A stretch of 64,000 bases of DNA from a bacterium UBP4_UBA6127 (GTDB lineage Bacteria; UBP4; UBA4092). The translations under genes and the position numbers were made by a program. Shown piece after piece: positions 1 to 62,717 of this stretch; position 1 is the first letter of the stretch; each line of letters starts with the position of its first letter. The stretch covers positions 149,597 through 213,596 of the forward strand of contig DIVR01000065.1 of NCBI GenBank assembly GCA_002428325.1. Direction: 5' to 3'. The notes under the pieces were generated by a model. It was not told the origin of the DNA and ran no database searches. It saw only the letters and a program-made list of their open reading frames with translations.

Positions 1-358
<358 letters not shown>

Positions 359-432
359 ACGATTGTATGTTTATGAGTTAAAAGAAAAATATTGATAGAT
401 AAAAACAAGGCCATGCCTGGGAGGTCAGCCTA

Positions 433-915: not shown

Positions 916-1106
916 ATTGGTTGTTTTATCCAGTCGATCCCATTTGTTTACCGGCTGATGGTGTTTTAAATCCAAGATCAATTAAGACTCTTTCGGGAGC
1001 TTACTGAAAGGAAAGGACCCTCATAATGGGGGAATGGCATTCATCTAGGTTGTCGCAGACTTTCCTGTTGAGGGACAAGATGATTTAAGCCAGTCAAAAA
1101 ATAATC

Positions 1107-3308: not shown

Positions 3309-3318
3309 AGTTAAAAAA

Positions 3319-6271: not shown

Positions 6272-6307
6272 GACCTAAATTTATGAAAAGAGACGAGTTG
6301 AGCAACG

Positions 6308-7420: not shown

Positions 7421-7424
7421 AGAG

Positions 7425-11060: not shown

Positions 11061-11061
11061 T

Positions 11062-14252: not shown

Positions 14253-14294
14253 TGAATGATTTTAGTAAGGGGTTTCAAGAAGGGACAGATAGAT

Positions 14295-15515: not shown

Positions 15516-15551
15516 TACTTAATATTCCTCGAAAAAGGGGAGGATCCTGAC

Positions 15552-44334: not shown

Positions 44335-44733
44335 ATGGCAGACGATAAAATGAATGAAGGTTATATTCTGATTGCTGACGACCAGCCTGATATTGGGTTT
44401 GCCTTGAAGGTGCTGTTTGAAACCAGCGGCTACAGGGTCAAGGTCGTAGAAAACGGCAAATTGGCAATGGATGAGGTCAAAAAAGAGAATCCCATATTGG
44501 TGATTTCTGATATCCTGATGCCTCAGATGAATGGTTTTAAATTATGTGAATTAATCAAGCAAAACGCTAAGACCTCCACGATTCCGGTGATTTTGCTGAC
44601 GGCAGTCTATCGCAAAGACCATCATGTGGATATGGGATTCAGCCATGGCGCGGATGCCTATTTTTCCAAGCCTTTTAAACCTGAGCAGATATTGCAAGTT
44701 GCTAAAAAATTAATGTCAGGCCGAGGGGCATAA
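44335..44733 (+). CDS. standalone response-regulator receiver (CheY-like)
   Basis: Acidic pocket (ADDQPD...D...K) in a 132-aa single-domain protein. Confidence 0.8.
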   Translation: MADDKMNEGYILIADDQPDIGFALKVLFETSGYRVKVVENGKLAMDEVKKENPILVISDILMPQMNGFKLCELIKQNAKTSTIPVILLTAVYRKDHHVDMGFSHGADAYFSKPFKPEQILQVAKKLMSGRGA

Positions 44734-44771: not shown

Positions 44772-45482
44772 TTATTTTCCAGCTTCCCTGACGAAGGCCC
44801 TAAACAGTAAAGAATGACCCTCATGTTCCTGAAGTTCTTCGGGATGCCATTGAATCCCCAGAATAAATCGGTTGTCATCAGCTTCAACAGATTCAATGAC
44901 TCCATCCTCAGCTTTTGCTGAAATCACCAATCCTTTTCCCGGTTGACGAACTGCCTGATGGTGGAAGCTGTTGGTTTGGATTTCATCTTTCCCAAGGATT
45001 TGATACAGCCTGGAGGGTTTATCAATAAAGACTTTATGGGTCAGGGTGTTTCGAGTTTCTTTCTGGCTGTGGATTATGGTGGATTCCACCTGGGATGGAA
45101 TATCCTGGATAAGTCTCCCTCCCAGGCCCACATTGATAGTCTGGCAGCCCAGGCAGATACCCAGAACGGGAATCTTTTTTTGTAAGGCTTCCCTGAAATA
45201 GTTCAATTCATAATCCTGCCTGATTTCATGCATTACCTGGGTCTTTTCATGTTTTTCTTCCTGATAAATAGAAGGATTATGGTCATTTCCCCCAGTCAAT
45301 AGAAGCCCGTCAATCAGGGAAACTGCTTCTCTGTAATCCTCCGGTTGTGTTTGTTGGGTAAGAATGAGAGGAATCCCCCCTGCTTGCAAAATTGCTCTTG
45401 AATAAGCATTGTTCAGGTAATACCGGTCCCGGTTATCTTTAGTCTCAAAATCAGGGGTAATTCCAATAATTGGTTTTTTCAT
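44772..45482 (-). CDS. class I glutamine amidotransferase, gamma-glutamyl-GABA hydrolase (PuuD/peptidase C26)-like
   Basis: GICLGCQ catalytic Cys and C-terminal His/Glu. 236 aa. Confidence 0.75.
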   Translation of the reverse strand: MKKPIIGITPDFETKDNRDRYYLNNAYSRAILQAGGIPLILTQQTQPEDYREAVSLIDGLLLTGGNDHNPSIYQEEKHEKTQVMHEIRQDYELNYFREALQKKIPVLGICLGCQTINVGLGGRLIQDIPSQVESTIIHSQKETRNTLTHKVFIDKPSRLYQILGKDEIQTNSFHHQAVRQPGKGLVISAKAEDGVIESVEADDNRFILGIQWHPEELQEHEGHSLLFRAFVREAGK

Positions 45483-47398
45483 GTGACGCTCCTGGCAATC
45501 TTATGCTATTGATAATAGGGAAATCTTATCTTAAAACAGGAACTGAGAACAATCTGATTATGGGAACTGAAGAAACATCAAAGCCTACGGGTACAAATCT
45601 AGTGGAAACTATTTTTCATAAGAATTGGCTGAAAGCGGGGTTGATGATTCTGCTAACCCTGTTGGCATTCAGTTCCATATTTCAGGCGGGTTATTTATGG
45701 GATGATGAAATTATCAGCCTCAATTCAAACCTATTTCAAAGCGGAGCGGGTTTATTGAAGATATGGACTCAACCCGGGACTATTATTGGGGATGAGCATT
45801 TCTGGCCCATGGAATATACCACTTTCTGGCTGGAAGCCCACATTTGGGGACTTCATCCCATTACCCTGCATAGTGTCAATCTTTTGATCCATCTACTCAA
45901 TGCTATCCTGGTCTGGCAGGTCCTTAAAAAACTGGAAATTCCGGGAAGCTGGATTGCCGGATTGATATTTGCTTTACATCCGGTTCAAGTAGAATCGGTA
46001 GCCTGGATCTTTGAAAGAAAAGGTTTGTTATCAACTTTCTTTTATCTTATGGCTGGCTGGTGTTATCTGGAATATTCTCACAACCGGAGGAAAAGTGTTC
46101 TTTTAGTATCAATGATTTGCCTGGGATTTTCATTGCTAAGTAAAAGTATTGGAGTAACCTTCCCTTTAGCATTGATACTTATTATGGGATGGAAGAAAGG
46201 GAAAATATTTAAATCAGATTGGATAGAAATGATACCTTTCTTTCTGGTAACCGGATTGATTGTGGGGGGAGATTATTGGATTCATGCAAGAGTCAATCCT
46301 GCTAACTTAGGATGGGGGCTTGGGGAAAGAATAGCCCATGCTTTTTATGGTCTCAGCCTATATTTTGAGACTTTCTTCATTCCCCTGAAGCTTATGGGAT
46401 TTTATCCTTCTTTGGCTCATTCAACCAGCCATTGGCCCATTGCCGGAACCTTGATTTTGATGGCTCTGGGCGGAGGGGGATTATATTACTGGATCGTTAA
46501 GCAAAAGAGGGGAATCCTGACCGGATTCCTTTTTTATTGCCTGACTCTCTTACCGGTTCTGGGCTTCATGGAATTTTCCTTTTTAAGATTATCCCCGGTT
46601 GCTGACCGATATCAGTATCTGGCTTGTCTGGGGCTGGTTGTCCTGGTCTCTGCTGGATTGGGACAGGTGACAGATTACCTGGAAAACCATCAGAAAGAGT
46701 TAAAAACTATTGGGATGATGCTTACAGCGGGATATATCCTTACCCTGGGAAGTATGACCCTGGTACATGCGGAAAATTATAAAGATAATGAACACTTCTT
46801 TGGATATTGTGTGAAAGAGAATCCTCAGTCCTGGTATGCACGTTCCATGCTGGGAAAGAGTTTGATGGAAAAGGGTGAAGTGAAAGAAGCTGAATACCAA
46901 TTCACGAAAGCCCTGGAAATTTGGCCGGAATGTCCTGATGCCCGGATATTTCTGGCTTCTCTAAAACAAAAGCAGACTCAATATACCGAGGCGCTTCAAT
47001 TATATCGTTCTGTTAAAACCGGGAATCCCCGGATGCTCTATTTTGCCCAAGTCCAGTCAGGTTGGATTTTAATGGCCCTCAATCGTCCTCAGGAAGCGAT
47101 AGATACCCTCCGTAAAGCGAGTGTGTATTTTCCGAATAATCCCGATGCTTATATCCAAATGGGGATGGTATATGACCGGTTGAACCAATTTGATAAGGCT
47201 AATCAGGCTTATCAAAAGGCCCTTGAACTCGATTGGAACCTTGCCCTGGCTCATAACAACCTGGGAGTAAATCTGGCTCAATCAGGCAAATTGAGAGAAG
47301 CAGATAAACATTTTGATGAAGCTCTTAGGATCAATCCTCAATATGAGTCAGCCCGGAGAAATTCGACATCTGTCAAAAGAGCTCTGAAAGAACTTTAA
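45470..47398 (+). CDS. GT-C fold membrane glycosyltransferase-like protein (PMT/TMTC-like, DUF1736-type) with C-terminal TPR domain
   Basis: About 10 TM N-terminal region with YLWDDE in the first loop. C-terminal TPRs (about residues 480-640). The likely start is the Met at 45560 (MGTEET). Confidence 0.65.
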   Translation: MVFSCDAPGNLMLLIIGKSYLKTGTENNLIMGTEETSKPTGTNLVETIFHKNWLKAGLMILLTLLAFSSIFQAGYLWDDEIISLNSNLFQSGAGLLKIWTQPGTIIGDEHFWPMEYTTFWLEAHIWGLHPITLHSVNLLIHLLNAILVWQVLKKLEIPGSWIAGLIFALHPVQVESVAWIFERKGLLSTFFYLMAGWCYLEYSHNRRKSVLLVSMICLGFSLLSKSIGVTFPLALILIMGWKKGKIFKSDWIEMIPFFLVTGLIVGGDYWIHARVNPANLGWGLGERIAHAFYGLSLYFETFFIPLKLMGFYPSLAHSTSHWPIAGTLILMALGGGGLYYWIVKQKRGILTGFLFYCLTLLPVLGFMEFSFLRLSPVADRYQYLACLGLVVLVSAGLGQVTDYLENHQKELKTIGMMLTAGYILTLGSMTLVHAENYKDNEHFFGYCVKENPQSWYARSMLGKSLMEKGEVKEAEYQFTKALEIWPECPDARIFLASLKQKQTQYTEALQLYRSVKTGNPRMLYFAQVQSGWILMALNRPQEAIDTLRKASVYFPNNPDAYIQMGMVYDRLNQFDKANQAYQKALELDWNLALAHNNLGVNLAQSGKLREADKHFDEALRINPQYESARRNSTSVKRALKEL

Positions 47399-47586
47399 AT
47401 AGAATAACCTAACTCTTATTATATTAGTCATATATATCATTTTATCAGAAGCCCTTTTTGCTATCTCAGAAAGGTTGTTACCGGTAGTTTTGACTCAAGG
47501 TCTAATCTGTTATACTGATTAACAATATAGATAACCTGTTCCTGGCGAACAGGGGTATTAATCCTCTCTAAGAGGCTATTATTATT

Positions 47587-49668
47587 ATGAATGAACCGAT
47601 TAACAGCAAAAACAATCTAAACATCTCTGCCGTTATCTTTTTTGTAATGACCCTGTTGATTTCAGGAGGAGTTTATCTTTACACCCTGGCTCCAACTGTT
47701 ACCTTTGGGGATAGTGGGGACTTTATTACAGCCGCTTATGCCTTGAGGTTTGCTCATCCGCCAGGGTATCCTGTATTTATTATCTTAGGCAAATTATTTT
47801 CTCTTCTGCCCATATCCGGTGAGATTGCTTACCGAATCAATTTTATGTCAGCTTTTTTTTCAACTCTATCAGTTGGGATGGTCTATATCCTTGTCCTCTT
47901 TTTGGTCAGTGGTGGGAAGTCTATATTCAAGAAACAAAATAACGGCCCGTTATCGGAAAACCAGGAAATATTAAATCCGGGGATTCATGCTTGTGCTATG
48001 TTGGGAGCCTTAAGCTTTGCTTTCTCAGGTACTTTCTGGTCCCAGGCCCTGGTGGCTAAAGTTCATCCATTGGCAGCCTTTTTAACCGCTGTAGTATTTC
48101 TGCTTATTTTGAAATATGGGTGGACAGGAGAACGAAAATTCTGGTTTGCTTCTGTATTTATTTGGGGATTCAGCCTGGGGACCCACTTTACACCTGTTTT
48201 GTATATCCTCCCGGTGCTTCTTTTCTTATGGTATGAAAAAAAGTTAAAAGATATATTGAGTGGAAGTTCTTTGATATATGGAGTATCGTTGGCTTTATTG
48301 GGTTTTTCAGTAAATCTTATGATTCCTTTGGTGAGTCCTCATTTAATTGAAGTGGAATGGGGCTTAGGAGATAGTTGGCAGGGATTTAAACATATCCTAT
48401 TGCGGGGGGATTATGCTCCATATGAGTGGGCACGTCCTTTTTCAGCTTTAGCTGAACAGATATCCACAGCGGCCGGGACCCTGATCACAGGACAATCCAC
48501 CTCTCTCTTGGGTTTGTTATATGGATTAATCATTACTTGTATGGGCTTGCTGGGGATTCTCTGGCTGATAAAGAACCGTCGAGGTGAATTGGCTCTTCTG
48601 GCCGGAGCCGCTTTCATGGTCTGGGGATTTTATATTGCCAACAGTAATCATCCGATGACCCGGCAACTTTCCCTGGAAACAAGAGATATCTTCTTTATTC
48701 CGGCCTATATGATTTTTGGTATTTGGGTTGGACTGGGGCTTGTGGGAATATATCAAAAAAAGTTCCTGGAGGGAGAAAGTCCAACCGGCAATAATAAAAC
48801 CGGAGTGATCATCTGGATGATTGTGATTATCTTTCTTTCTTGCCTTGGTTTCAGTATCCAAATCCAAAGGCATAATGAGAGGGAATATTTCCTGGCTAAA
48901 GATTACGCCCGATGCCTTATGGATACCATGGAAAAAGATGCTATCTATATTGGGGACGATGATATGCACTTGTTCCCTTTATGGTATCTGCAGCAAGTTG
49001 AAGGGTATCGAACGGATATTTTGATATTTTCCAGGACTTCTTTCTATAAGCAATGGTATTATGACAACCTTAAAAAAAGAAACCTTCCTCAATTTCAGCT
49101 GCCGGCTTTTTCAGAAGGTATGGTTCCCAAAGATATCTTGAAAGCCCAGGCTTTCCTGGATAAACAATTATTTGCTCTGTTTACCCTGAATCTGGCCGAA
49201 CGCCCCTGTTATTTCTATCAGAAATATCCACTGAAGATAACTCCACCCTTACCTGTTAGCCAGGTTGGATTATTATATCGAGTTACTCAGAATCCCCTGA
49301 AGGGAAGCATTCAAGCAGAGCCTTACCCCTATCTGCCTCCTGCCAATTCATATCAATACCAGTTGGGACTTCAACCCTTAGGTGAAAGAGATTTCTGGAG
49401 AAACTGGGCCATTGAACGGTTGTCAGATTACCATGATCTGGAAGGGCAATATTGGATGGGCCAAATGAACCTTATCCGGGCTGAAGCAGAACTCCTGCAA
49501 GCAGTTGATCTGAATCCTTTTAATGCCAGGGGACATTTCGATCTGGGTGAGTATTATCTTACTCAGGGAGAATTTGAAAAAGCCAGAGATTCTTATGCCA
49601 GAGCTTTATACATTAATCCCGATATGGAGAAAGCTCGGGTCGCCATAGATAAACTTAAGATTAGATAA
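47587..49668 (+). CDS. DUF2723/TMEM260-like GT-C membrane protein with C-terminal TPR domain
   Basis: Hallmark APTVTFGDSGDFITAA...HPPGYP N-terminal motifs of DUF2723. Polytopic. C-terminal TPRs (AELLQAVDLNP..., ARALYINPD). Confidence 0.7.
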   Translation: MNEPINSKNNLNISAVIFFVMTLLISGGVYLYTLAPTVTFGDSGDFITAAYALRFAHPPGYPVFIILGKLFSLLPISGEIAYRINFMSAFFSTLSVGMVYILVLFLVSGGKSIFKKQNNGPLSENQEILNPGIHACAMLGALSFAFSGTFWSQALVAKVHPLAAFLTAVVFLLILKYGWTGERKFWFASVFIWGFSLGTHFTPVLYILPVLLFLWYEKKLKDILSGSSLIYGVSLALLGFSVNLMIPLVSPHLIEVEWGLGDSWQGFKHILLRGDYAPYEWARPFSALAEQISTAAGTLITGQSTSLLGLLYGLIITCMGLLGILWLIKNRRGELALLAGAAFMVWGFYIANSNHPMTRQLSLETRDIFFIPAYMIFGIWVGLGLVGIYQKKFLEGESPTGNNKTGVIIWMIVIIFLSCLGFSIQIQRHNEREYFLAKDYARCLMDTMEKDAIYIGDDDMHLFPLWYLQQVEGYRTDILIFSRTSFYKQWYYDNLKKRNLPQFQLPAFSEGMVPKDILKAQAFLDKQLFALFTLNLAERPCYFYQKYPLKITPPLPVSQVGLLYRVTQNPLKGSIQAEPYPYLPPANSYQYQLGLQPLGERDFWRNWAIERLSDYHDLEGQYWMGQMNLIRAEAELLQAVDLNPFNARGHFDLGEYYLTQGEFEKARDSYARALYINPDMEKARVAIDKLKIR

Positions 49669-49677
49669 GTTTATTAT

Positions 49678-50061
49678 CTAATTGATTTTGTGAGTAGAGA
49701 ATTCCTTACTGGTCGGATTGTAATTTGGACAGGTAATGGGATCCCCTATGACTCCTGAGGCGGCACCGTTGATGGTATATTCATCTTCTGTTGTTGGGCA
49801 TCGGGCGGATTGTGGATTTCTCAAGTAAGCGGTTAACTCTGACAGGGTCAAACTATCTTCATTTGTCTTTTTGTTTTCTATCGCATATTGAGCTTTTGCA
49901 TCTTCCATGATCCTGAGATTGTTAATACAGGATTTTGCATTAGCTTGCAGCCTACTTTTCATGTAATAAGGAATAGCTATTGAAGCCAGAATCCCAATAA
50001 TTCCCACCACAATCATAATCTCAATGAGGGTAAATCCTTTTTGATTGCGTTGCTTCTGCAT
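49678..50061 (-). CDS. type IV pilin-like protein (prepilin N-terminal cleavage/methylation domain), paralog 1
   Basis: Class III signal MQKQRNQKG|FTLIEIMIVVGIIGILASIAIP (Phe+1, Glu+5). Four Cys. Conserved C-terminal CPNY motif shared with the upstream paralog. Confidence 0.85.
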   Translation of the reverse strand: MQKQRNQKGFTLIEIMIVVGIIGILASIAIPYYMKSRLQANAKSCINNLRIMEDAKAQYAIENKKTNEDSLTLSELTAYLRNPQSARCPTTEDEYTINGAASGVIGDPITCPNYNPTSKEFSTHKIN

Positions 50062-50086
50062 AATGTCTATCCTTTTTTTAATAAAT

Positions 50087-50124
50087 AAGGCGTCATGTGA
50101 TCTCGGCGAACACCATGACGCCTT
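50087..50124 (-). promoter_or_regulatory. intercistronic stem-loop between the tandem pilin genes
   Basis: Perfect 11-bp stem AAGGCGTCATG/CATGACGCCTT with a 16-nt loop, between the pilin-2 stop and the pilin-1 RBS. Confidence 0.55.
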
Positions 50125-50157
50125 ATAAACTTTTTTTAAATGAAGAACTTATCAGGT

Positions 50158-50526
50158 TTATGGATATTTGTGACCTGTAAATTCATCACCAGTTCCATAG
50201 TTCGGGCAAACCGGCGGAGTCCCAACAATGGTCAATGTATAAGAAGAGCCATTGGACGGACAAACAAAAGAACCAACGGAATCACGCATGTAAGGTTCCA
50301 AGTCAGTCTGGGTTACCGATGCGGAATTGTCTTTCTTTTCTTCCAGGGCCCACTGCTGCTGTGCGCCATCAATCTGTTTCAGATTATTGACGCAGGCTTT
50401 GGCGTTCGCCTGAATACGGGCACGAATGAAGTTCGGGATCGCGATAGCGGCCAGAATACCAATGATGGCGACTACGATCATGATTTCAACGAGTGTAAAA
50501 CCTTTTTGGTTACGTAAGGATTTCAT
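50158..50526 (-). CDS. type IV pilin-like protein, paralog 2
   Basis: MKSLRNQKG|FTLVEIMIVVAIIGILAAIAIP. Start set at MKSLRN (50526). Preceded by a sigma-54 promoter. Confidence 0.85.
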   Translation of the reverse strand: MKSLRNQKGFTLVEIMIVVAIIGILAAIAIPNFIRARIQANAKACVNNLKQIDGAQQQWALEEKKDNSASVTQTDLEPYMRDSVGSFVCPSNGSSYTLTIVGTPPVCPNYGTGDEFTGHKYP

Positions 50527-50584: not shown

Positions 50585-50600
50585 AAGCAACCTCTATGCC
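50585..50600 (-). promoter_or_regulatory. sigma-54 (RpoN) promoter upstream of pilin paralog 2
   Basis: Minus strand reads TGGCAT-AGAGG-TTGCT. GG and GC are spaced exactly as in TGGCAC-N5-TTGC. It lies about 60 nt upstream of the pilin-2 ATG and next to a sigma-54 activator gene. Confidence 0.65.
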
Positions 50601-50772
50601 AAAAAAAAATCTATTTATTTGTGATGAGATAACATGAATAAACTCAAGCATAATATTGAATTTACGATTTTCTTGGTAAGAGATAAGGCTTATAAAAATG
50701 AGTTATTCTGTAACCATAAGTAGGCAACCTGTCACTTTAGTTATACATAAAAATCTTCTGATAGGTGATAAA

Positions 50773-52149
50773 TCAATCAGAGATATTATATTTGGCTAAC
50801 TTATCATAAAGGCATTTTCGGCTTAAACCGAGAGCTTTAGCGGCCTGCGAACGATTACCTCCAGCGCTTTGAAGAGCTTTGATAATGATGCGTTTTTCCG
50901 CTTCCGCTGTGATGTGATTGATATGGTCCGATAAATTAATGTCTTCAGAAGGCAGGGTTATCGAGGGAGAAGGGATTGTGGTTCCTGGTTTGATTTCAAT
51001 GGGAATAGCATCTTCCTCAATAATATCTGAGGGTGAAAGGGCAATGGCTCTTTGAATGAAATTCTCAAATTCTCTAACATTGCCGGGCCAGGAATACTCT
51101 TGGATGAATTTCAAGACTGGGGTAGATATTTTTTGAATGTTTTTTCCAAACTTATTATTATATTTTTCCCTGAAATATTCGAATAAGAGAGGGAGGTCAT
51201 CTCTTCGTTCCCGGAGGGGAGGGAGGAAAATGGAGATGACATTTAGCCGGAAATAAAGGTCTTCCCGGAATGATTTCTCTTCCACTGCTTTTACTAGGTC
51301 CTTATTAGTAGCAGCAACCACCCTGACATCGACCTTGATGACATTATTACCTCCAACCCGTTCAAATTCCCTTTCCTGAATGACTCTCAGAAGTTTGGCC
51401 TGGGTCGGTAGGGTCATATCCCCAATTTCATCCAGAAATATGGTTCCGCCCTGGGCCATCTCAAATTTACCCAGCCTGCGTTCAGAAGCCCCGGTAAAAG
51501 CGCCTCGTTCATGGCCAAAGAGCTCAGATTCCAGCAATCCTTCGGGGATAGCGACACAATTCATCTTAATAAAAGGTTTTTTCTGGCGATAACTATTGAT
51601 ATGGATGGCATGGGATACCAACTCTTTACCGGTTCCGCTTTCGCCAATAATCAAAACGGTCACATCCAGTTTGGATACCTGGGATATCAGCCGATAGACT
51701 TCTTTCATCCGTTCGCTGGTGCCGATAATATTTTCGTATTCGCGTTCCTGCTGTTTTAATGCCTGCAGTTCTCTTTGTAGAAGATTTTTTTCCAAAGCGC
51801 GGCGGACGACCACCCGCATTTCATTAATATCGAAAGGTTTGGTGAAATAATCATAGGCGCCAATATCCATAGACTGATAGGCAATTTCCCGGGAACCGAA
51901 AGCTGTCATCATAATGACTGTCGATTCCTTATCTATTTTTCTGATTTCCAACAGAGTCTGAATCCCATCCATCCGGGGCATTTTCATGTCCAGTATGACA
52001 ACATCAAAGGATTTATTTTTGATTTTCTCCAGAGCCTTCAAACCATCTTCTGCAGTTTCAACGTAATAACCTTCTTTATTCATTAATTCTGACAAGGTGA
52101 AACGAAGATCTTCTTCATCATCAACAATCAGGATTTTAGACTGGTTCAT
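50773..52149 (-). CDS. sigma-54-dependent response regulator (NtrC/PilR family: REC, AAA+, Fis-type HTH)
   Basis: Receiver domain, AAA+ with GESGTGKE and the GAFTGA sigma-54 contact motif, and C-terminal HTH (QAAKALGLSRKCLYDKL). Confidence 0.9.
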   Translation of the reverse strand: MNQSKILIVDDEEDLRFTLSELMNKEGYYVETAEDGLKALEKIKNKSFDVVILDMKMPRMDGIQTLLEIRKIDKESTVIMMTAFGSREIAYQSMDIGAYDYFTKPFDINEMRVVVRRALEKNLLQRELQALKQQEREYENIIGTSERMKEVYRLISQVSKLDVTVLIIGESGTGKELVSHAIHINSYRQKKPFIKMNCVAIPEGLLESELFGHERGAFTGASERRLGKFEMAQGGTIFLDEIGDMTLPTQAKLLRVIQEREFERVGGNNVIKVDVRVVAATNKDLVKAVEEKSFREDLYFRLNVISIFLPPLRERRDDLPLLFEYFREKYNNKFGKNIQKISTPVLKFIQEYSWPGNVREFENFIQRAIALSPSDIIEEDAIPIEIKPGTTIPSPSITLPSEDINLSDHINHITAEAEKRIIIKALQSAGGNRSQAAKALGLSRKCLYDKLAKYNISD

Positions 52150-53750
52150 ACGATATCCTCTTTATCTGGTATTACCGGCAGCCAGATTTGGAAAGTGGTT
52201 AGCTCCCCTTGTTGGCTGTCAACTTCAATCCACCCGCTATGGGCTGCGATTATCTGATGGGAAATAGCTAAACCTAATCCCGATCCCGTATTTTTGGTGG
52301 TAAAGAACGGATCAAAGATTTTTTCGGTTAATTCTGGGGGAATGGCCGGGCCGTTATTGGATATTTCAACCACGATAAAACCGGTATGGGGAATCCTATA
52401 GTCCTGTCGGGGAGGAGCTTGATAACTCCGGACCCTTATCAGAGCCTTTTGCGGCATATTAGGGGTAACCGCATCTATGGCATTCAGGAAAATATTTAAT
52501 AAAGCCTGCATGATTTTATCTTTTTCTATCCGAAGCCTCGGAAGGGGATTATCCATTATCTCATCGATTTCAATGCTGGATAAATATTTAGGGGATTGTT
52601 TGGCAACAAAAAGGGCATCCTTCAGGACATCTTCCAGATGGGACCATTGGGTTCCCCCTTCAGTAGCATGGGAAAAATCCAATAACTCTTCTACGACATG
52701 ATTGAGTCGATCAATTTCTTTGACAATAATGGTGGCGTATTTATGGTTTTTATCATCCAAGGGGGTATCCTCGGAAATCATTTGGGCCAACCCCTTCATA
52801 GAACCCAGAGGATTCCTGATTTCATGGGCTAGCCCGGTGGAAAGGGTCCCGATAGCGGCCAATCGGTCAGACCGGTGCAGTTGCTGCTGGATTTGTTTGA
52901 TACGACTCAAGTCCTTGAAGGATGCGACTACTCCCAGTAATATATCGTTTGTATCTTTCATCAGGTTGATACTGATGCCGATGGGAATCAACCCGGTTGA
53001 AGGAGTATTGATGGAAACCTCTTCTGAAGAATAAACAACCTTTCCTTCCAGGGTTTGCTTGAACATTGCCCGAACCCTTTGGTTTTCCAGCACATCAGGG
53101 ATTATATCAAAGATGGATTTCCCTTCCGCATAGCTTTCGGGAAGGCCCAGAATGGTTTCAGCCGCTGTATTAATCGTATTGATGGTTCCCTGGTTGTCCA
53201 GGGTCAGCAATCCTCCCCCCAGGCTTTCGAATATGTATTTATTCCGTTCATGGACATAAGTCCTCAGGTTCTGGACCATGATATTGAAATTATCCTGTAA
53301 GACACCGATTTCCTCATGGGCAGATATTTTGGGAGGGGTTACCCATTCACCAGTGGAAAGTTTTTTGATGATTTCATTTATCTGTTTCAGAGGTTTGACC
53401 ACCACATAACTCAGGAGGAATCCAACGATAGCCGATAGAAGAGCGCCTCCCAGCAGAAGAGAAAATAAAGAATCGGTTATTCGAAGGGTATCTTCATGAG
53501 TTACTCCTGTCCGGGGAAGATTGGTGCCCAGGTATTGGATCATGATAATTCCAATGAATAATACCAGCAGACAGAATAGCAGGGGGGTGGCAAAAATCAG
53601 CCTGACCCGCCATTGTTCTTTTTGGTAATTGGGAGGTGCATCCGGTGGATTTGTTTTTATATCAGGTTTTTCAGGGACCCCAAGCCTCGATTGCTTTTCA
53701 GCCTTTCCAGGGTCAGGCGATTTCCTGTTATTATTTTTTAGCAGGGGCAT
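52146..53750 (-). CDS. sensor histidine kinase (TM, HAMP, PAS, HisKA, HATPase; PilS/NtrB-like)
   Basis: Two TM segments. H-box (LSTGLAHEIRNPL). N, G1 and G2 boxes (NAIDA, GSGLGL). 4-nt overlap with the downstream regulator. Confidence 0.85.
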   Translation of the reverse strand: MPLLKNNNRKSPDPGKAEKQSRLGVPEKPDIKTNPPDAPPNYQKEQWRVRLIFATPLLFCLLVLFIGIIMIQYLGTNLPRTGVTHEDTLRITDSLFSLLLGGALLSAIVGFLLSYVVVKPLKQINEIIKKLSTGEWVTPPKISAHEEIGVLQDNFNIMVQNLRTYVHERNKYIFESLGGGLLTLDNQGTINTINTAAETILGLPESYAEGKSIFDIIPDVLENQRVRAMFKQTLEGKVVYSSEEVSINTPSTGLIPIGISINLMKDTNDILLGVVASFKDLSRIKQIQQQLHRSDRLAAIGTLSTGLAHEIRNPLGSMKGLAQMISEDTPLDDKNHKYATIIVKEIDRLNHVVEELLDFSHATEGGTQWSHLEDVLKDALFVAKQSPKYLSSIEIDEIMDNPLPRLRIEKDKIMQALLNIFLNAIDAVTPNMPQKALIRVRSYQAPPRQDYRIPHTGFIVVEISNNGPAIPPELTEKIFDPFFTTKNTGSGLGLAISHQIIAAHSGWIEVDSQQGELTTFQIWLPVIPDKEDIV

Positions 53751-54528
53751 TAGGTTTCTCTTGGATGACTTTTATCTGGGTTTGCAGCTCGGGAATATGG
53801 GATTGAGCCGCTTTGGCATAGGGTTGAATATTTAATTTTTTAACTTCTTTCCAGGCTTCCAGGGCTCCTGCCGGGTCTTTCAGCCTTTCCAGGGTGAAAG
53901 CCAGATACTCCATGACATTGGCTCGGTCCCAATCTTCCATCTTTTTTCGGGAAGCCAGCCGGAACTGGATTTTAGCATTGGAATAATCCTGGAGTTTATG
54001 AAAATAGAGCAAGCCTAAATCATAATTTAATTCATATCGGTCAGGATTATTTCTCAATCCTTCCTGGAGAAAATCGATGGCTTGTTGAGGGGCATTTAAT
54101 TTCTTCCAGAGCCACCAGCTTCCCACCCGATAGGCTTCTAAAAATTGAGGGTCTAACCTGGTTACTACCTCGATTAAAGGCATCAGGTCCGCATCATGAG
54201 ACTTTGAATGTGATGAATGTTCATGCCCATGCAAATGTTCAGGGTGTCCCGGGTGAATCATTTCATGTTCTTCAGGGGTGACCGAGGCATGAAAATAATC
54301 ATCGACTTTAATCCAGGCCAAATCGGCCAGGGTCACTCGGATTTCTCTGAAGGCTCCGGAAACCACTTTACCGGGGGTGATCCGGCTGGAGCCATGGGAA
54401 TTTTCATCATGACCACTCATTTCTTTTTTCTGCCTGTTTAGCTGGCTGCTTATCATAACTAAGAGGATAGCCAATATCAGCAGGCTGAACCATAAAACTC
54501 GGTTATTTTTGTCCAAGATAGATTTCAT
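53731..54528 (-). CDS. His-rich membrane-anchored TPR protein
   Basis: N-terminal TM. His-rich segment HPGHPEHLHGHEHSSHSKSH. C-terminal TPRs. Overlaps the start of the histidine kinase by 20 nt. Confidence 0.55.
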   Translation of the reverse strand: MKSILDKNNRVLWFSLLILAILLVMISSQLNRQKKEMSGHDENSHGSSRITPGKVVSGAFREIRVTLADLAWIKVDDYFHASVTPEEHEMIHPGHPEHLHGHEHSSHSKSHDADLMPLIEVVTRLDPQFLEAYRVGSWWLWKKLNAPQQAIDFLQEGLRNNPDRYELNYDLGLLYFHKLQDYSNAKIQFRLASRKKMEDWDRANVMEYLAFTLERLKDPAGALEAWKEVKKLNIQPYAKAAQSHIPELQTQIKVIQEKPNAPAKK

Positions 54529-56632: not shown

Positions 56633-58369
56633 ATGAAAAAAATTAGATTTATATGGATAGCCTTTGGGATTGGACTTTTATGCGCCTATCTGGGATTTAA
56701 GGGATTAGGTAATGCCTATTTCTGGGATGACGAGTCCTTGGTCGGAATCACAGCCACCAATCTCCTGGAAACCGGGAAAATGGCAGCCTGGGATGGGGTG
56801 AATCTCTATAGTTATCGAAATGGCGGGATGGTTACTGATGATTTACGGATGAATACCCCACCTTTGGATGTATGGGTTTGCGCACTTTCCTTTAAAATAA
56901 TGGGACCCTCAGTATTATCCGGCCGACTCCCTTTTGTCCTGGCAGGATTGTTAGCCCTGATGTTTTTCTTCCTGATATTAGAGAAGGAATTTCCCCAGCA
57001 AGACTCTCTGAAAGTCTATATGCTGGTGAGTTTTGCCTTTTCGACTCTTTTTCTGTTGAACATTAGACAGTGCCGGTATAACTCTTTTGCCATAATGAGT
57101 TCCCTGGGATGTTTTTATTTCTATTTAAAAACCTTGGATGATAAAAAAATCTGGCCGTTTGCAGGGATGGCCTTGATGGGTGTCCTCCTTTTTTATGCCA
57201 ATTCCATGTTTTGCGCGGCCTTTCTGGTCTCCATTGGAATGATGCACCTGATATTCCATCACCGGGAGTATTCTGGGTTTCAATGGAAAGCTATTTCTCT
57301 GGCTATCGCCGGATTTCTGGCGCTGACGGTCCCTTATGCCCTTTATTATAAAATCTGGATTCGGCATGATTTCGATTTTATATATGCCGATTCTTCTCTG
57401 ATTCGAAAATGTAAACTGATTTTCTGGTATCTGCGAGATATGAATCTCATCAATGCCCTTCCCTGGATGTTCCTGGTCCTTCTGGGAATCCTCAAAGGGA
57501 GAGAGAAAACAGCCCTTCCCCATGGGAACAAAATCATTCAATGGGGATTCATTGGGGTAATGAATATTCTGATGATAGCCCTGATATCGCCTCAACCAAC
57601 CAATAATCCAGGGTATGGGGATGTCCGGTACTTGATGGTTTCCTATGCTTTTATGATAGGGATATCCGGATATATTCTCTGGCTCCTTTACCGTAAATAT
57701 CCATTGGCAGGGCATCTTTTACTGGTGATATATATCTTTTCAAATATCTTTACCTTGATTCCTTTTTCTAAGCAATTGAAACTGATTCCTTATAACCTGA
57801 ATTTCCAGTGGCTGTTGCCGGCCTATCTGGTGGAAATCCATTCAGAGTATCCTACCGGCACTCCCCCAGTAGCGGAATTTCTGTTGCAGAATGTAAAACC
57901 AGGAGAAATGGTAATGAGCTGGCCGGAGCATACGGTTTATCCTCTGCGTTTTATCACCGGGAAGAAAATATTCTACGGCTGTGGGCTGAACCGATATACC
58001 CACTTGGACCCTGCGAAGATTCGAGCTTTGGATTCCCGCTTACTTCTGGAGGATAATTATCCTGACTGGTTTGTCTCTTATGGATTGAGAAATGATACCC
58101 CGTCTTTGCTGGAGATGTTTCAGCGAACCCATTGGGAGGGGGATAGGGAGATTCAATATCGGTATCGAATGGTGAAATATATTGACTATTACTGGGACCA
58201 GACCCAACGGCCGGAAATATATTGGCACCATTTTGGACCGAAACGGGATTTTGCTCCGGTGCTGGAGGGAATCTATATCTTTAAAAGGGTCCGTCCGGAA
58301 GAAGACCAGACTCGAAGAACTGAGCCTGAAAGGGATAGGGCAGCATCAGAATCAAAAGCAGGAAGATAA
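56633..58369 (+). CDS. GT-C membrane glycosyltransferase, ArnT/PMT_2 (GT83/GT39-like) family
   Basis: YFWDDES in the first periplasmic loop and PPLDVW in the second. About 12 TM. Charged C-terminal tail. Confidence 0.65.
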   Translation: MKKIRFIWIAFGIGLLCAYLGFKGLGNAYFWDDESLVGITATNLLETGKMAAWDGVNLYSYRNGGMVTDDLRMNTPPLDVWVCALSFKIMGPSVLSGRLPFVLAGLLALMFFFLILEKEFPQQDSLKVYMLVSFAFSTLFLLNIRQCRYNSFAIMSSLGCFYFYLKTLDDKKIWPFAGMALMGVLLFYANSMFCAAFLVSIGMMHLIFHHREYSGFQWKAISLAIAGFLALTVPYALYYKIWIRHDFDFIYADSSLIRKCKLIFWYLRDMNLINALPWMFLVLLGILKGREKTALPHGNKIIQWGFIGVMNILMIALISPQPTNNPGYGDVRYLMVSYAFMIGISGYILWLLYRKYPLAGHLLLVIYIFSNIFTLIPFSKQLKLIPYNLNFQWLLPAYLVEIHSEYPTGTPPVAEFLLQNVKPGEMVMSWPEHTVYPLRFITGKKIFYGCGLNRYTHLDPAKIRALDSRLLLEDNYPDWFVSYGLRNDTPSLLEMFQRTHWEGDREIQYRYRMVKYIDYYWDQTQRPEIYWHHFGPKRDFAPVLEGIYIFKRVRPEEDQTRRTEPERDRAASESKAGR

Positions 58370-58662: not shown

Positions 58663-60630
58663 ATGGATTTTAACCGGGTTAAAGAAATAGTGTTGGGAAG
58701 AGGAAGAAACCCCCGAGATCCCCATGTGTTCCACCAGATTTCATTGATAGCCTTTCTGGCATGGATTGGACTGGGAGCTGATGGGCTTTCTTCTTCCTGT
58801 TATGGTCCTGAAGAAGCCTTTTATGCCTTGGGTGTCCATTCTCATTTTGCCCTGTTCCTGGCTTTGGCGACCGCGGTTACTGTTTTTGTCATCTCGGCCA
58901 GTTACTCACAGCTGATAGAGCTGTTTCCGACCGGCGGCGGGGGGTACCTGGTGGCAACTAAGCTCTTAGGCCCATATCCCGGGTTAGTGGCCGGTTGCGC
59001 CCTGGTGGTGGATTATGTTCTGACTATTGCGGTCTCGGTCTCCAGCGGAGCCGATGCCATTTTTAGTTTTCTGCCTTCTGCCTGGCTGCCTTTAAAACTC
59101 TGGTTCATTACGGCTGTGATTCTCTTATTGATTATCCTGAATCTCCGGGGGGTCAAGGAATCGGTCATTATTTTGACCCCGATATTTCTGACTTTTGTGG
59201 CAACTCACCTGATATTGATTCTATATAGTATTGTTCCCCACCTGGCAAATGTGCATGGTCTGGTCAGCAATACCATCCATGAGACTCATACCACCCTGCA
59301 AAACCAGGGATTCCTGGCCGTTGTGTTTATCCTGATGCGGGCTTACAGCATGGGCGGAGGAACTTATACCGGGATTGAAGCGGTCAGTAACGGTATCCAA
59401 ATCCTTCGGGAACCGAAGGTCCATACAGCTAAAAAAACCATGTTGTATATGGCCATTTCCCTGGCTTTTACCGCCGGTGGTATTATGGTGGCATATCTCC
59501 TGATGGGAGTTCACCGACAGCCGGGAATGACCCTGAACGCTGTCCTGGTCTCCATGATATCCCAGGAGTTAAACCAAAGCGGATTACCCATCGGAACCAT
59601 CTTTTTTTATGTGACTCTGGTGTCTGAAGGACTGTTATTATTCGTGGCCGCCCAGACCGGGTTCATTGATGGTCCCAGGGTCCTTGCCAATATGGCGCAG
59701 GATTCCTGGGTTCCCCGTAAATTCTCTCTGCTGAGTGACCAGTTGGTTATTAAAAATGGGATTCTATTGATGGGGTTTGCGACCCTGGTAGTGGCTCTCT
59801 GGAGCCATGGGTCAGTCAGATTCCTGGTAGTCCTTTACAGTATTAATGTCTTTCTGACCTTCACTCTCACCCAGCTGGGGATGTGTGTCCATTGGTGGCA
59901 GGAACGTAATGCCAATCCAGCCTGGAAAAAGAAAATGGCAATTAACGGGATGGGTCTTTTAATGACCCTGAGCATCCTGATTGCCACGGTCATCATCAAG
60001 TTTGAAGAAGGGGGCTGGGTTACCCTGATTATCACTTCCTTCTTTATCGGGGGATGCCTCTGGATCAAATCCCATTACAATCGGATGACCCAGCTGATTA
60101 AAAGGCTCAATGCCAGTATGTTCAGTATTCCTCTGCCGCCCTCGGTACCCAGCACTCCTTTGCGGGACCCGAAAGCGGCTACGGCTGTTCTTATGGTCAG
60201 CGGTTTTAACGGGTTGGGACTGCATTCTTTGCTGGATATCATCAAGACTTTCCCTAAGCAATATAAAAATATCGTTTTTGTATCAGTCGGCATTCTGGAT
60301 AATGCTAAATTTAAAGGAGTCAGCGAGGTCTCCAACCTGGAAGCTGATACCGTAGATAACCTTAAAAAATATGTGGATTATGCTACCCGATGGGGATTCT
60401 ATTCCGAATATCGGTATTCTATCGGAGTGGATACCATTGATGAACTGGAAAAAATTGCCAAAGAAATCAGTGAGGATTACTCTTCGGTGGTCTTTTTTGC
60501 CGGGAAACTGATGTTTAAAGAAGAAAATTTCCTGAGCCGGTTATTGCATAATCAGGCTTCCATGGCAATTCAGCGGCGGCTCTTGTATAGTGGATTTAAA
60601 ATGGTGGTATTGCCGATTCGAGCCTATTAA
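58663..60630 (+). CDS. APC-superfamily transporter with C-terminal cytoplasmic domain (KimA-like K+/H+ symporter candidate), paralog A
   Basis: About 12 TM. GADGLSSSCYGPEE and LFPTGGGGY motifs. About 200-aa soluble C-terminal domain. Confidence 0.55.
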   Translation: MDFNRVKEIVLGRGRNPRDPHVFHQISLIAFLAWIGLGADGLSSSCYGPEEAFYALGVHSHFALFLALATAVTVFVISASYSQLIELFPTGGGGYLVATKLLGPYPGLVAGCALVVDYVLTIAVSVSSGADAIFSFLPSAWLPLKLWFITAVILLLIILNLRGVKESVIILTPIFLTFVATHLILILYSIVPHLANVHGLVSNTIHETHTTLQNQGFLAVVFILMRAYSMGGGTYTGIEAVSNGIQILREPKVHTAKKTMLYMAISLAFTAGGIMVAYLLMGVHRQPGMTLNAVLVSMISQELNQSGLPIGTIFFYVTLVSEGLLLFVAAQTGFIDGPRVLANMAQDSWVPRKFSLLSDQLVIKNGILLMGFATLVVALWSHGSVRFLVVLYSINVFLTFTLTQLGMCVHWWQERNANPAWKKKMAINGMGLLMTLSILIATVIIKFEEGGWVTLIITSFFIGGCLWIKSHYNRMTQLIKRLNASMFSIPLPPSVPSTPLRDPKAATAVLMVSGFNGLGLHSLLDIIKTFPKQYKNIVFVSVGILDNAKFKGVSEVSNLEADTVDNLKKYVDYATRWGFYSEYRYSIGVDTIDELEKIAKEISEDYSSVVFFAGKLMFKEENFLSRLLHNQASMAIQRRLLYSGFKMVVLPIRAY

Positions 60631-60755: not shown

Positions 60756-62717
60756 ATGAAATCCATTAAAGAAATGTTATTAGGAAAACGGCGGAATCCT
60801 CTGGATCCCCATATTTTCCATCAGATATCCTTAATTGCGCTTCTGGCCTGGATTGGCCTGGGTGCCGATGGACTGAGTTCTTCGGCTTATGGTCCTGAAG
60901 AAGCCTTTCTGGCTTTAGGGCAATATACCCATCTTGCCCTTTACCTGGCCGTTGCCACCGCAGCGACTGTCTTTATTATTTCCGCCAGCTATTCCCAGCT
61001 GATTGAATTATTTCCCACCGGGGGTGGGGGATACCTGGTGGCGACTAAACTTTTGGGACCCTTTCCTGGTTTGGTAACAGGGTCTGCTTTGGTAGTCGAT
61101 TATGTTCTGACCATCGCTATCTCCATTTCCAGCGGTGTGGATGCTATCTTCAGTTTCCTTCCTCCGGCTTTAGCTATCTATAAGTTATATGTCAAAGCTT
61201 TTATGGTCATTGTTCTGGTGATTCTGAACCTCAGAGGGGTCAAAGAATCCGTAGTCATACTCACGCCTATCTTTATTACCTTTGTCGTAACCCATATTTT
61301 CCTGATTTTTTACAGTATCTTTGGGCATCTGGGTGAACTGCCCCTGATGTTGGGAGATACGGTCCGGGAGACTCATCAGGCTATTCAGACCCAGGGATTT
61401 TTTGCCATGCTCTTCATATTGTTGAGGGCATACAGTCTTGGCGGCGGTACTTATACCGGGATTGAAGCGGTCAGTAATGGAATGCAGATTCTCCGGGAAC
61501 CCAGGGTCCATACCGCCAAGAAAACCATGCTTTATATGGCAACCTCCCTTGCCTTTACCGCAGGGGGAATCCTGGTGGGATATCTGCTGATAAGAGTTCG
61601 TCCCCAGGAGGGAATGACCCTGAATGCCGTCCTGATTAATATGATTTCCCAGAATTGGAATTGGTTTGGCATTCCCATAGGAACCCTGTTTTTTTATATC
61701 ACCCTGATATCTGAAGGGTTATTGCTCTTTGTGGCTGCCCAAAGCGGATTTTTGGCAGGTCCCCGAGTTCTGGCCAATATGGCTCAGGATTCCTGGGTGC
61801 CCCATCGGTTCTCGCATCTTAGCGACCAGCTGGTAACCAAGAATGGGATATGGTTGATGGGAATGGCGGCAGTAGCTGTCATCTTGGGGTCCCATGGTTC
61901 TGTGCATGTCCTGGTAGTTCTTTATTCAATCAATGTATTTTTGACCTTTACCTCTGCCCAGTTGGGGATGTGTGTCCATTGGTGGAAGGTAAAGGATGAG
62001 GTGGACCATTGGAAACGCAAACTGACCATTAATGGCGTAGGCATGGTTCTGACTTTTGGGATATTGATAGCGACGATTACTATTAAATTTATGGAAGGCG
62101 GCTGGGTTACCCTGGCCATTACAACTTCCCTGATTGGTGTCTGTCTCTGGATTCGGGCCCATTATACCCAGATGGGGAAATATCTGAAACGGCTGGATAA
62201 AACCCTGATGAGTATTCCCCTGCCTCCGGCCGCTTCCAGTTCTCCTTTGAAAGATGCCAAAGCTCCCACAGCAGTATTGTTGGTTTCCGGATATAACGGG
62301 TTGGGTATCCATTCTCTTCTGGCTATCATCAAGGCATTCGGAAAACATTACAAGAATATTGTGTTTATCTCGGTGGGTGTCATTGATACCAGTAAATTCA
62401 AAGGGGTTCGGGAAGTCGAGAACCTTACGGAAAATACAGTTTCCAATCTTAAGAAATATGTGGATTTAGCCTCCCGGCTGGGGTACTATTCCGAATACCA
62501 TTACACCATCGGGGTGGATGTCATGGATGAGATTGAAAAGATTTGCCGGGAAACAGTGGCTGAATATCCCAACTCTATCATCTATGCCGGAAAACTGATT
62601 TTCAAAGAAGAAAACTTTATTAATCGGCTTCTCCATAACCAGGCGGCCTTGACCATCCAGAGCCGTCTTCTTTACAGTGGCATCCAAGTAGTGGTCCTTC
62701 CGATTCGAGCTCTCTAA
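60756..62717 (+). CDS. APC-superfamily transporter with C-terminal cytoplasmic domain, paralog B (tandem duplicate)
   Basis: Colinear with paralog A and highly similar throughout (same motifs, same length). A TTGTAT-17-TATAAT promoter lies immediately upstream. Confidence 0.55.
   Translation: MKSIKEMLLGKRRNPLDPHIFHQISLIALLAWIGLGADGLSSSAYGPEEAFLALGQYTHLALYLAVATAATVFIISASYSQLIELFPTGGGGYLVATKLLGPFPGLVTGSALVVDYVLTIAISISSGVDAIFSFLPPALAIYKLYVKAFMVIVLVILNLRGVKESVVILTPIFITFVVTHIFLIFYSIFGHLGELPLMLGDTVRETHQAIQTQGFFAMLFILLRAYSLGGGTYTGIEAVSNGMQILREPRVHTAKKTMLYMATSLAFTAGGILVGYLLIRVRPQEGMTLNAVLINMISQNWNWFGIPIGTLFFYITLISEGLLLFVAAQSGFLAGPRVLANMAQDSWVPHRFSHLSDQLVTKNGIWLMGMAAVAVILGSHGSVHVLVVLYSINVFLTFTSAQLGMCVHWWKVKDEVDHWKRKLTINGVGMVLTFGILIATITIKFMEGGWVTLAITTSLIGVCLWIRAHYTQMGKYLKRLDKTLMSIPLPPAASSSPLKDAKAPTAVLLVSGYNGLGIHSLLAIIKAFGKHYKNIVFISVGVIDTSKFKGVREVENLTENTVSNLKKYVDLASRLGYYSEYHYTIGVDVMDEIEKICRETVAEYPNSIIYAGKLIFKEENFINRLLHNQAALTIQSRLLYSGIQVVVLPIRAL

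Follow-up and report, generated by a model that had tools for sequence, protein, structure and literature searches.

A candidate type IV pilin O-glycosylation locus with a GT117 (TMEM260-family) glycosyltransferase in a UBP4 bacterium

We analysed a 64,000-nucleotide (nt) stretch of DNA from the bacterium UBP4_UBA6127 (assembly GCA_002428325.1, contig DIVR01000065.1, positions 149,597 to 213,596; called the window here), which comes from a toluene-degrading enrichment metagenome (JGI 3300002498 / SRR5323159) and belongs to a diderm organism (LpxK, Mla) with about 43% GC. Two genes for polytopic GT-C glycosyltransferases, GT-C1 and GT-C2, form a four-gene locus together with two type IV pilin genes (Table 1), and every feature described in an earlier reading of the same DNA (the sequence-only reading) was found in its place. 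On balance, and with only moderate confidence, we hold that the pilins are O-glycosylated in the periplasm by one or two dedicated GT-C enzymes, as part of a module under sigma-54/PilS/PilR control. Pilin O-glycosylation is the best-supported function of the locus because two results hold, the membership of GT-C2 in glycosyltransferase family GT117 and the recurrent linkage of GT117 genes with pilin genes; the acceptors, the donor and the timing we infer. GT-C2 is the core enzyme of this module. The fuller claim, that a GT117 enzyme and a TMTC-like enzyme together make up a dedicated type IV pilin O-glycosylation system, falls in our estimate slightly short of an even chance.

The assignment of GT-C2 to the DUF2723/TMEM260 family, made in the sequence-only reading, was borne out. 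GT-C2 matched the Pfam family PF11028 (TMEM260-like) at aa 42-221 with 139.5 bits against a cut-off of 24.2 (E = 1.3e-40), its C-terminal tetratricopeptide repeats (TPR) were matched as well, and PF28495 is on record for the protein. The solved human TMEM260 (PDB 9rql) was matched with E = 9.9e-29 over query residues 27-508, through both the membrane and the Rossmann-like luminal domains, and a bird TMEM260 (P0089) with E = 5e-18 at 77% coverage and 25% identity. Bacterial homologs of GT-C2 are named 'glycosyltransferase family 117 protein' or 'DUF2723 domain-containing protein' at NCBI, and the GT117 family comprised 6714 clusters at E <= 1e-10. GT-C2 is divided into a transmembrane (TM) GT-C domain (aa 1-430), a Rossmann-like domain (~aa 436-600) and a TPR domain (~aa 603-693). 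Its AlphaFold2 model (pLDDT 82, pTM 0.85) showed membrane helices, a mixed alpha/beta domain with strands and helices at 436-566, and a TPR tail with helices at 603-692. The best PDB matches of this model in Foldseek were PglB, STT3, ArnT, Pmt4 and ALG9, all of them GT-C enzymes, and on the predicted structure the GT-C fold of GT-C2 is confirmed. GT-C1 showed an ArnT/PMT-like GT-C fold, and the GT-C fold proposed for the two enzymes was supported for both.

To place the active site we used a 2026 cryo-electron microscopy study of human TMEM260, in which D52 and H67 are donor contacts, R264 and Y267 of the donor loop contact the phosphate and the mannose, respectively, and D441 of the Rossmann-like domain is the proposed catalytic base. 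In the HMMER alignment to 9rql these residues correspond to D42, H57, R273, Y276 and D459 of GT-C2, which keeps five of the six donor-binding or catalytic residues of the human enzyme. Among bacterial GT117 proteins, position 42 was Asp in 162 of 164 and position 57 was His in all 164, and Y276 was nearly invariant. Judged by these alignments, GT-C2 is a true GT117 enzyme with intact active-site residues. The TMEM260 discovery paper says merely 'distant homologs in bacteria', and we found no study of bacterial DUF2723/GT117 proteins in the literature searched, in agreement with the earlier statement that they are uncharacterised. The only characterised GT117 member found in that literature is animal TMEM260, which acts on protein.

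GT-C2 had been described as ending about 10 nt from the pilin genes, and the stop codons of GT-C2 and pilin 2 are indeed separated by 9 nt (49669-49677). Both pilins matched N_methyl PF07963 (39 and 41 bits) and TIGR02532, and both showed a class III signal peptide with G-1, F+1 and E+5 followed by a hydrophobic helix. They were the sole prepilin-type open reading frames (ORFs) in the window. In pilin 1 three Cys are conserved, as is a 'CPxxGSxYT' stretch, rich in Ser/Thr, that follows the second Cys and that we would name, as a guess, as a candidate glycosylation site. Pilin 2 showed weak N-terminal matches to GspG/PilA/ComGC and belongs, by alignment, to a 'PYY/PWW..RS' paralogue type that is kept beside the GT117 gene in relatives.

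Upstream of pilin 1 stands a consensus sigma-54 promoter, TGGCAT-N5-TTGCT; the window held no other match, where 0.14 were expected. The same element stands at the same place in L006, L167-L170 and L178 (loci are denoted by L numbers); L003 and L009 have it with a single mismatch. A pilin gene preceded by a -24/-12 promoter thus lies beside genes for a sensor kinase and a sigma-54 activator, and the pilin locus has the classical pilS-pilR-pilA layout. The hairpin between the two pilin genes had a z-score of -4.5, none of 200 shuffled sequences was as stable, and it is followed by AUUUAUU. It is likely a partial, attenuating terminator after the pilin 1 gene, which would set the ratio of the two pilins. 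Because of this stable hairpin, pilin 1 is probably the major subunit, strongly expressed, with read-through into the pilin 2 gene. The gene for a 265-aa protein overlaps the start of the sensor kinase gene by 20 nt; the protein has no NCBIfam match, and counterparts of 229-278 aa were seen at the same position wherever related loci show the upstream gene.

The gene neighbourhood was then compared between relatives of the window lineage, and three layouts were found. In the first (window, L167 and L169, with GT117 of the latter two ~69% identical to the window) a C26 peptidase gene is divergent from GT-C1 and GT117, which in turn converge on two pilin genes, the response regulator gene and the sensor kinase gene. 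In the second (L178, GCA_026416715.1, GT117 35% identical) a DUF1611 gene is divergent from GT117, and GT117 converges on a GT-C1-family gene that lies on the strand of the two pilin, response regulator and sensor kinase genes and directly adjoins the pilins. The GT-C1-family protein of L178 carries FAGFIWDDD and TPRs. L175 showed the same order of response regulator, pilin, pilin and GT-C1-like gene, after which the contig ends, and it probably belongs to the second layout. In the third (L003/L007, L005, L006 and L176, GT117 40-49% identical) GT117 converges directly on the pilins. The far flank of the GT-C genes varied, with a C26 peptidase gene in the first layout, three GH44 genes or DUF1611 in the third and DUF1611 in the second. 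The pilin side was constant over the layouts, the neighbourhood of GT117 and pilins was kept at GT117 identities of 35-69%, and the convergent gap was small throughout (3-33 nt). In the second layout the GT-C1-family gene has the same partners in another order and orientation, and partners that stay together through rearrangement usually point to functional coupling. The synteny survey suggested in the sequence-only reading therefore found linkage of GT-C and pilin genes across relatives and in two gene orders, and for GT117 also in unrelated lineages.

A genome scan gave one close relative only; the species representatives that it covered do not include the genome of the window itself. A search with the globular part of pilin 1 found 13 protein clusters in 5.8 billion, which marks the pilin as a rare subfamily. 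When loci were looked up from the pilin side, beyond the window and the L169/L170 clusters, L176 had GT117 beside the pilins and L175 had the GT-C1-family gene, L174 had neither, and the contigs of L171 and L177 end too early. All pilin loci with readable downstream sequence except L174 had an adjoining GT117 or GT-C1-family gene. The neighbour that converges on the pilins in L174 (L174:3976-4992, minus strand) encodes a 338-aa protein that had no Pfam match and whose 'FLDDG' recalls the DxD motif of GT-A enzymes.

We also scanned 160 further GT117 loci from genomes and metagenomes for prepilin N-termini, of which 150 remained after removal of near-duplicates; the metagenome sample serves as background, with no relative above 31% identity among the matches listed. 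A pilin gene lay within 1 kb of GT117 in six of the 150 distant loci against 1.4 expected (Poisson P = 0.003), the expectation being taken from the pilin density in the farther flanks, a baseline inflated by extensions of the same clusters. The adjacency is thus about four times the flank-based expectation. In a neighbour-joining tree the pilin-adjacent distant loci fell on at least four separate GT117 branches. In L009 (a Nitrospirota MAG) a kinase, a sigma-54 regulator, PilC, four tandem pilins and a GT117-TPR protein are encoded on one strand. The unclassified metagenome contigs L147 and L153 showed the orders PilB-PilT-PilC-pilin-GT117 and PilC-pilin-pilin-GT117, and L073 (a Patescibacteria MAG) the order PilT-PilC-pilin-pilin-YfhO-x-methyltransferase-GT117-pilin-PilD. 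In L130, also an unclassified metagenome contig, GT117 is followed by a T4a-type pilin, and L034 is a weaker case in which GidB lies between GT117 and the pilin. GT117 and pilins are on the same strand in L009, L147, L153, L073 and L130, and pilus-assembly genes adjoin them in the first four of these loci. The rearranged gene orders and the distant pilus operons argue for a coupling of GT117 with pilins, and the precedent of TfpW (below) argues, by analogy, for pilin glycosylation.

The Nitrospirota locus also bears on the donor. Its pilins and the window pilins are homologs that share C-x2-NL, 'CP-x-x-G-S-S-Y-x-T' and a C-terminal Cys-Pro...His. On the same strand, 3' of GT117, a cluster (L009:9587-16019) encodes a GT2 protein, an ATPase, a DegT (PseC/ArnB-like) aminotransferase and, further on, an ArnC/PgfS/AglJ-like polyprenyl-phosphate-sugar synthase, a polysaccharide deacetylase and a GT4 protein. 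This suggests a candidate amino-sugar donor pathway by an ArnB/ArnC-like route. The combination of GT117 with an ArnC/PgfS-like GT2 fits the logic of the three-component undecaprenyl-phosphate-sugar systems (ArnC/ArnT, GtrB/GtrA/Gtr and PgfS/PgfM). The expected co-occurrence with a polyprenyl-phosphate-sugar synthase was therefore seen in L009; it was not seen among the window ORFs scanned with Pfam, which lie outside positions 1-16832. YfhO-family GT-C genes were observed in or beside GT117-carrying pilin operons at L073:3703-5961 and L147:7973-10147. Because these YfhO-family genes adjoin pilins in both loci, two different GT-C enzymes next to pilins are a recurring pattern, beyond the window.

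The second enzyme of the locus, GT-C1, had been read as TMTC-like. The mechanical ORF begins with TTG at 45470 and ends at 47398; the true start is likely the ATG at 45560, which is also used in public gene calls and in the protein database, since an ORF that began at the TTG would overlap with the gene of the divergent C26 peptidase. Residues are numbered from this ATG. Pfam PMT_2 matched GT-C1 with 28.8 bits, barely over the cut-off of 26.1, and a strong TPR array covered roughly the last 200 residues (~aa 410-612). W47, D48 and D49 were invariant in 18 homologs. A search with the membrane domain found more than 4000 homologs, nearly all with PMT_2 and TPR and often several per genome, and some carry the JGI label 'protein O-mannosyl-transferase', which is the TMTC orthology name. 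The same domain had no match in a PDB sequence search.

The TMTCs are defined by 11 TM helices, a DD loop, a DUF1736 (PF08409) loop between TM7 and TM8 and a TPR tail, and DUF1736 matches all human TMTCs at E < 1e-30. DUF1736 was not among the best 25 of the 30 Pfam matches of GT-C1 at E <= 1 (down to E = 0.021), nor among the best 25 of the 88 families matched by 17 GT-C1 homologs. GT-C1 shares with TMTC1-4 (GT105, cadherin O-mannosyltransferases) the cytoplasmic N-terminus, the DD motif in loop 1, about 11 TM helices and the TPR array; homology was seen only at the level of the PMT_2 clan. Of the TMTC assignment, the YLWDDE loop, the helix number, the TPR tail and the PMT_2 relationship stood, and DUF1736 was not among the matches listed. 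By its sequence, GT-C1 is a member of a bacterial PMT_2/TPR family, TMTC-like in architecture and not demonstrably a TMTC.

In a close relative (L169:10001-11817 and L170:10001-11817) the GT-C1 orthologue consists of two ORFs, a membrane ORF of 359 aa and a TPR ORF of 242-253 aa, a split seen in two independent samples, and the GT-C1-like gene of L175 (L175:2828-3509) is frameshifted. Decay, a functional split or assembly error could account for these cases. They suggest that GT-C1 can be spared more readily than the GT117 gene.

The locus was compared with known systems. Pseudomonas aeruginosa TfpW (AAM52060.1), the D-arabinofuranosyltransferase of group IV pilins, combines a GT-C domain of 11 TM helices with a TPR domain in the periplasm, and its DDx motif is essential; its gene lies directly after pilA, and it uses a polyprenyl-phosphate sugar for O-glycosylation of pilin Ser/Thr. 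GT-C1 and GT-C2 share with it the GT-C domain joined to a periplasmic TPR domain and the acidic motif in loop 1, and the gene of GT-C2 lies, like that of TfpW, beside pilin genes. In a comparison by description only, TfpW differs in being (distantly) Emb-like, in its DDx and Yx6PFx7P motifs and in adding arabinofuranose oligomers in a DprE1/DprE2-dependent way. No DprE1/DprE2 or DPPR synthase of the TfpW donor pathway was found among the scanned window ORFs. The DDE and a Y-x6-P-x7-P stretch of GT-C1, read from the translation, resemble the TfpW motifs, and this is a resemblance only. The orientation relative to the pilins is convergent in the window and co-directional in L009, L147, L153, L073 and, for the GT-C1-family gene, L178. 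By analogy, TfpW is the closest functional counterpart of the locus.

PglL, TfpO (PilO) and PglS also glycosylate type IV pilins in the periplasm, and tfpO adjoins pilA. They differ in belonging to the unrelated Wzy_C family and in transferring preassembled oligosaccharides from undecaprenyl-pyrophosphate. Wzy_C (PF04932) had no significant match in GT-C1, GT-C2 or the scanned window ORFs, and a Wzy_C_2 match in the TPR region (E = 0.016) was at chance level. The proposal of a pilin glycosylation route distinct from PglL/TfpO/PilO holds in so far as Wzy_C had no significant match; it left TfpW unmentioned, and with that precedent the locus would add a new enzyme family to a kind of route already known, instead of a new kind of route.

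TMEM260, the O-mannosyltransferase of IPT domains in the endoplasmic reticulum, is of the same family as GT-C2 by sequence, with the same key residues and the same three-part build of an 11-helix GT-C domain, a Rossmann-like domain and TPRs. GT-C2 differs in being bacterial, in not conserving the mannose-contacting R355 and in a lipid carrier that would be of the undecaprenyl type instead of dolichol. Its client would be a type IV pilin; the window pilins lack the IPT sequon P-x5-P-x3-G-P-x2-G/A-G-G-x2-T/S, which matched neither of them when compared by eye.

From the human enzyme acting on unfolded IPT-domain strands, a possible course of the reaction can be modelled. The pilins would enter the inner membrane with their N-terminal helix, the C-terminal part being translocated unfolded. 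At the periplasmic leaflet, D42, H57, R273 and Y276 in the membrane domain of GT-C2 would bind a monosaccharide carried on polyprenyl-phosphate, and an extended stretch of the pilin would be gripped by the Rossmann-like and TPR 'hand'. D459 would then deprotonate a Ser/Thr hydroxyl, which would attack the anomeric carbon with inversion, before the pilin folds and is assembled. GT-C1, where present, might add a second modification or act on a second site, or might serve the other pilin paralogue.

A number of results weigh against pilin glycosylation by this locus. The GT-C and pilin genes are convergent in the window and are not co-transcribed, and no terminator-like structure was found at the 9-nt junction of GT-C2 and pilin 2. 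Neither a polyprenyl-phosphate-sugar synthase (GT2) nor a pilus-assembly gene (PilB/C/D/M-Q) was found among the scanned window ORFs, and no glycosylation site was predictable in the pilins. GT-C1 is missing from L003, L005, L006 and L176 and is split or frameshifted in L169/L170 and L175, and L174 has a pilin pair without an adjacent GT-C gene. The human mannose contact R355 aligns to I368 of GT-C2 and is not conserved. The close relatives form one lineage, in which synteny may be partly inherited, and 144 of the 150 distant GT117 loci had no pilin nearby, so the GT117 family as a whole is not dedicated to pilins. Because R355 aligns to Ile, the sugar transferred may not be mannose; the aminotransferase and the ArnC-like synthase of the Nitrospirota locus likewise give no indication of mannose.

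Several of these results would fit enzymes that glycosylate other periplasmic or outer-membrane proteins, be it as a general O-glycosylation system or for another specific client, with the pilin neighbourhood as inherited gene order, an explanation that we regard as unlikely but still worth serious weight. The convergent genes without co-transcription and the 144 loci lacking a pilin favour it, as do the L174 pilins and the huge GT-C1 family with its several paralogues per genome, and the block of pilins, regulators and deformylase is syntenic across the lineage, so that inertia could explain part of the pattern. Inertia accounts poorly for a far flank that changes three times while the pilin junction persists, for three partners that recur in rearranged order, and for same-strand GT117 genes in pilus operons of unrelated lineages, with adjacency about four times the expectation. 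These observations lead us to prefer pilins as the clients.

The acceptor could also be no protein at all. Transfer to lipid A, peptidoglycan or a surface polysaccharide, as by ArnT and Emb/Aft, would agree with ArnT, AftA and Emb among the structural matches, with the ArnB-, ArnC- and ArnD-like genes of the L009 cluster, and with the third GT-C gene of the window, which is ArnT/PMT-like and without TPRs. We consider it improbable, given that GT-C2 keeps the Rossmann-like domain and catalytic Asp that, with the TPRs, form the peptide groove in human TMEM260, that both enzymes carry TPRs as do the protein-modifying TMTC, TMEM260 and TfpW, and that the only characterised GT117 enzyme found, animal TMEM260, modifies protein. 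Even less probable, to the point that we give it very little credence, is a role of the two proteins as TPR scaffolds for pilus biogenesis (PilF/PilW-like) with inactive or irrelevant transferase domains. Weak matches of the TPR regions to PilW/PilF-type models, and the JGI name 'Tfp pilus assembly protein PilF' for some homologs, point that way; these matches fall short of the family cut-offs and come from the similarity that TPRs share in general, and the strict conservation of the donor and catalytic residues of GT-C2 and of WDD in GT-C1 would be unexpected in inactive enzymes.

If pilin O-glycosylation by these enzymes is correct, pilins would have a third enzymatic route to glycosylation in addition to the Wzy_C-type enzymes and TfpW, and a natural substrate would be known for the first time for any bacterial GT117. 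Both non-canonical O-mannosyltransferase families of animals would then descend from, or share ancestry with, prokaryotic enzymes that decorate the subunits of surface filaments. The genes for TMEM260 and the TMTCs are disease genes, and how the enzymes work is just beginning to be resolved; the locus offers a prokaryotic model in which enzymes of this class are tractable. The glycosylation route would also be new for pilus biology in poorly studied lineages, most of them uncultured (the window lineage, Nitrospirota and Patescibacteria), and pilin glycans could there bear on susceptibility to phages, on the stability of the filaments and on surface properties.

Table 1. Positions of the genes and sequence elements of the locus and its surroundings in the window.
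Feature	Position	Strand	Description
GT-C1	45560-47398	+	polytopic GT-C glycosyltransferase, ~11 TM helices, C-terminal periplasmic TPR array, 612 aa
YLWDDE motif of GT-C1	45692-45709	+	first periplasmic loop (DD/DDx acidic motif of GT-C enzymes)
GT-C2	47587-49668	+	GT117 (TMEM260/DUF2723-family) glycosyltransferase, 693 aa
FGDSGDF...AHPPGYP signature of GT-C2	47704-47772	+	FGDSGDF 47704-47724, HPPGYP 47755-47772
LLRGDY of GT-C2	48397-48414	+	holds R273 and Y276
GDDDMH of GT-C2	48952-48969	+	holds D459
Pilin 2	49678-50061	-	127 aa, KG/FTLIE (cleavage at the slash), convergent with GT-C2
Stem-loop between pilin genes	50085-50126	-	13-bp stem, -26.5 kcal/mol
Pilin 1	50158-50526	-	122 aa, KG/FTLVE (cleavage at the slash)
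Sigma-54 promoter TGGCATAGAGGTTGCT	50586-50601	-	~60 nt 5' of pilin 1 ATG
PilR-type response regulator	50773-52149	-	receiver, sigma-54 AAA+ activator and Fis helix-turn-helix domains
PilS-type sensor kinase	52146-53750	-	HAMP, PAS, HisKA and HATPase domains
265-aa protein	53731-54528	-	weak TPR signal, 5' of kinase gene
Third GT-C gene	56633-58369	+	PMT_2 at 35 bits, no TPR

The third GT-C gene, which the sequence-only reading had noted 7 kb away, exists and encodes a PMT_2 protein with 'AYFWDDESL' near its N-terminus, resembling the GT-C1 loop. In L006 it is likewise kept 3' of the deformylase gene, a position that L167 fills with a gene of similar size. Nothing beyond this lineage synteny ties it to the pilins, and it is probably an ArnT/PMT-like envelope glycosyltransferase unrelated to them. 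Scans for sigma-70 promoters and terminators around the locus gave nothing above chance level. The other scanned ORFs are diderm housekeeping genes (MlaE/F/D, DnaB, ribosomal proteins, LpxK, IspD/E/F, RadA, RseP and ProRS). Long antisense ORFs lie over pilin 1 (50140-50517, plus strand) and over GT-C2 (48526-48969, minus strand); both are missing from the public gene calls and are most likely shadow ORFs.

Two further TPR-containing ORFs were considered as additional GT-C/TPR enzymes and rejected. A gene at 24743-28156 (minus strand) encodes a 1137-aa protein with TPR repeats nearly throughout from about residue 390, and its N-terminal part had neither a family match nor similarity to the GT-C1 membrane domain. 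Nor was the ORF with a TPR tail at 32309-33466 related to that domain. Directly 3' of the prolyl-tRNA synthetase gene, a stand-alone receiver-domain protein of 132 aa is encoded at 44335-44733 (plus strand), and it keeps the same position in L167 and L169. Downstream of the third GT-C gene, two tandem paralogous amino-acid permeases of 655 and 653 aa are encoded at 58663-60630 and 60756-62717 (plus strand), and both run about 200 residues past the Pfam permease domain.

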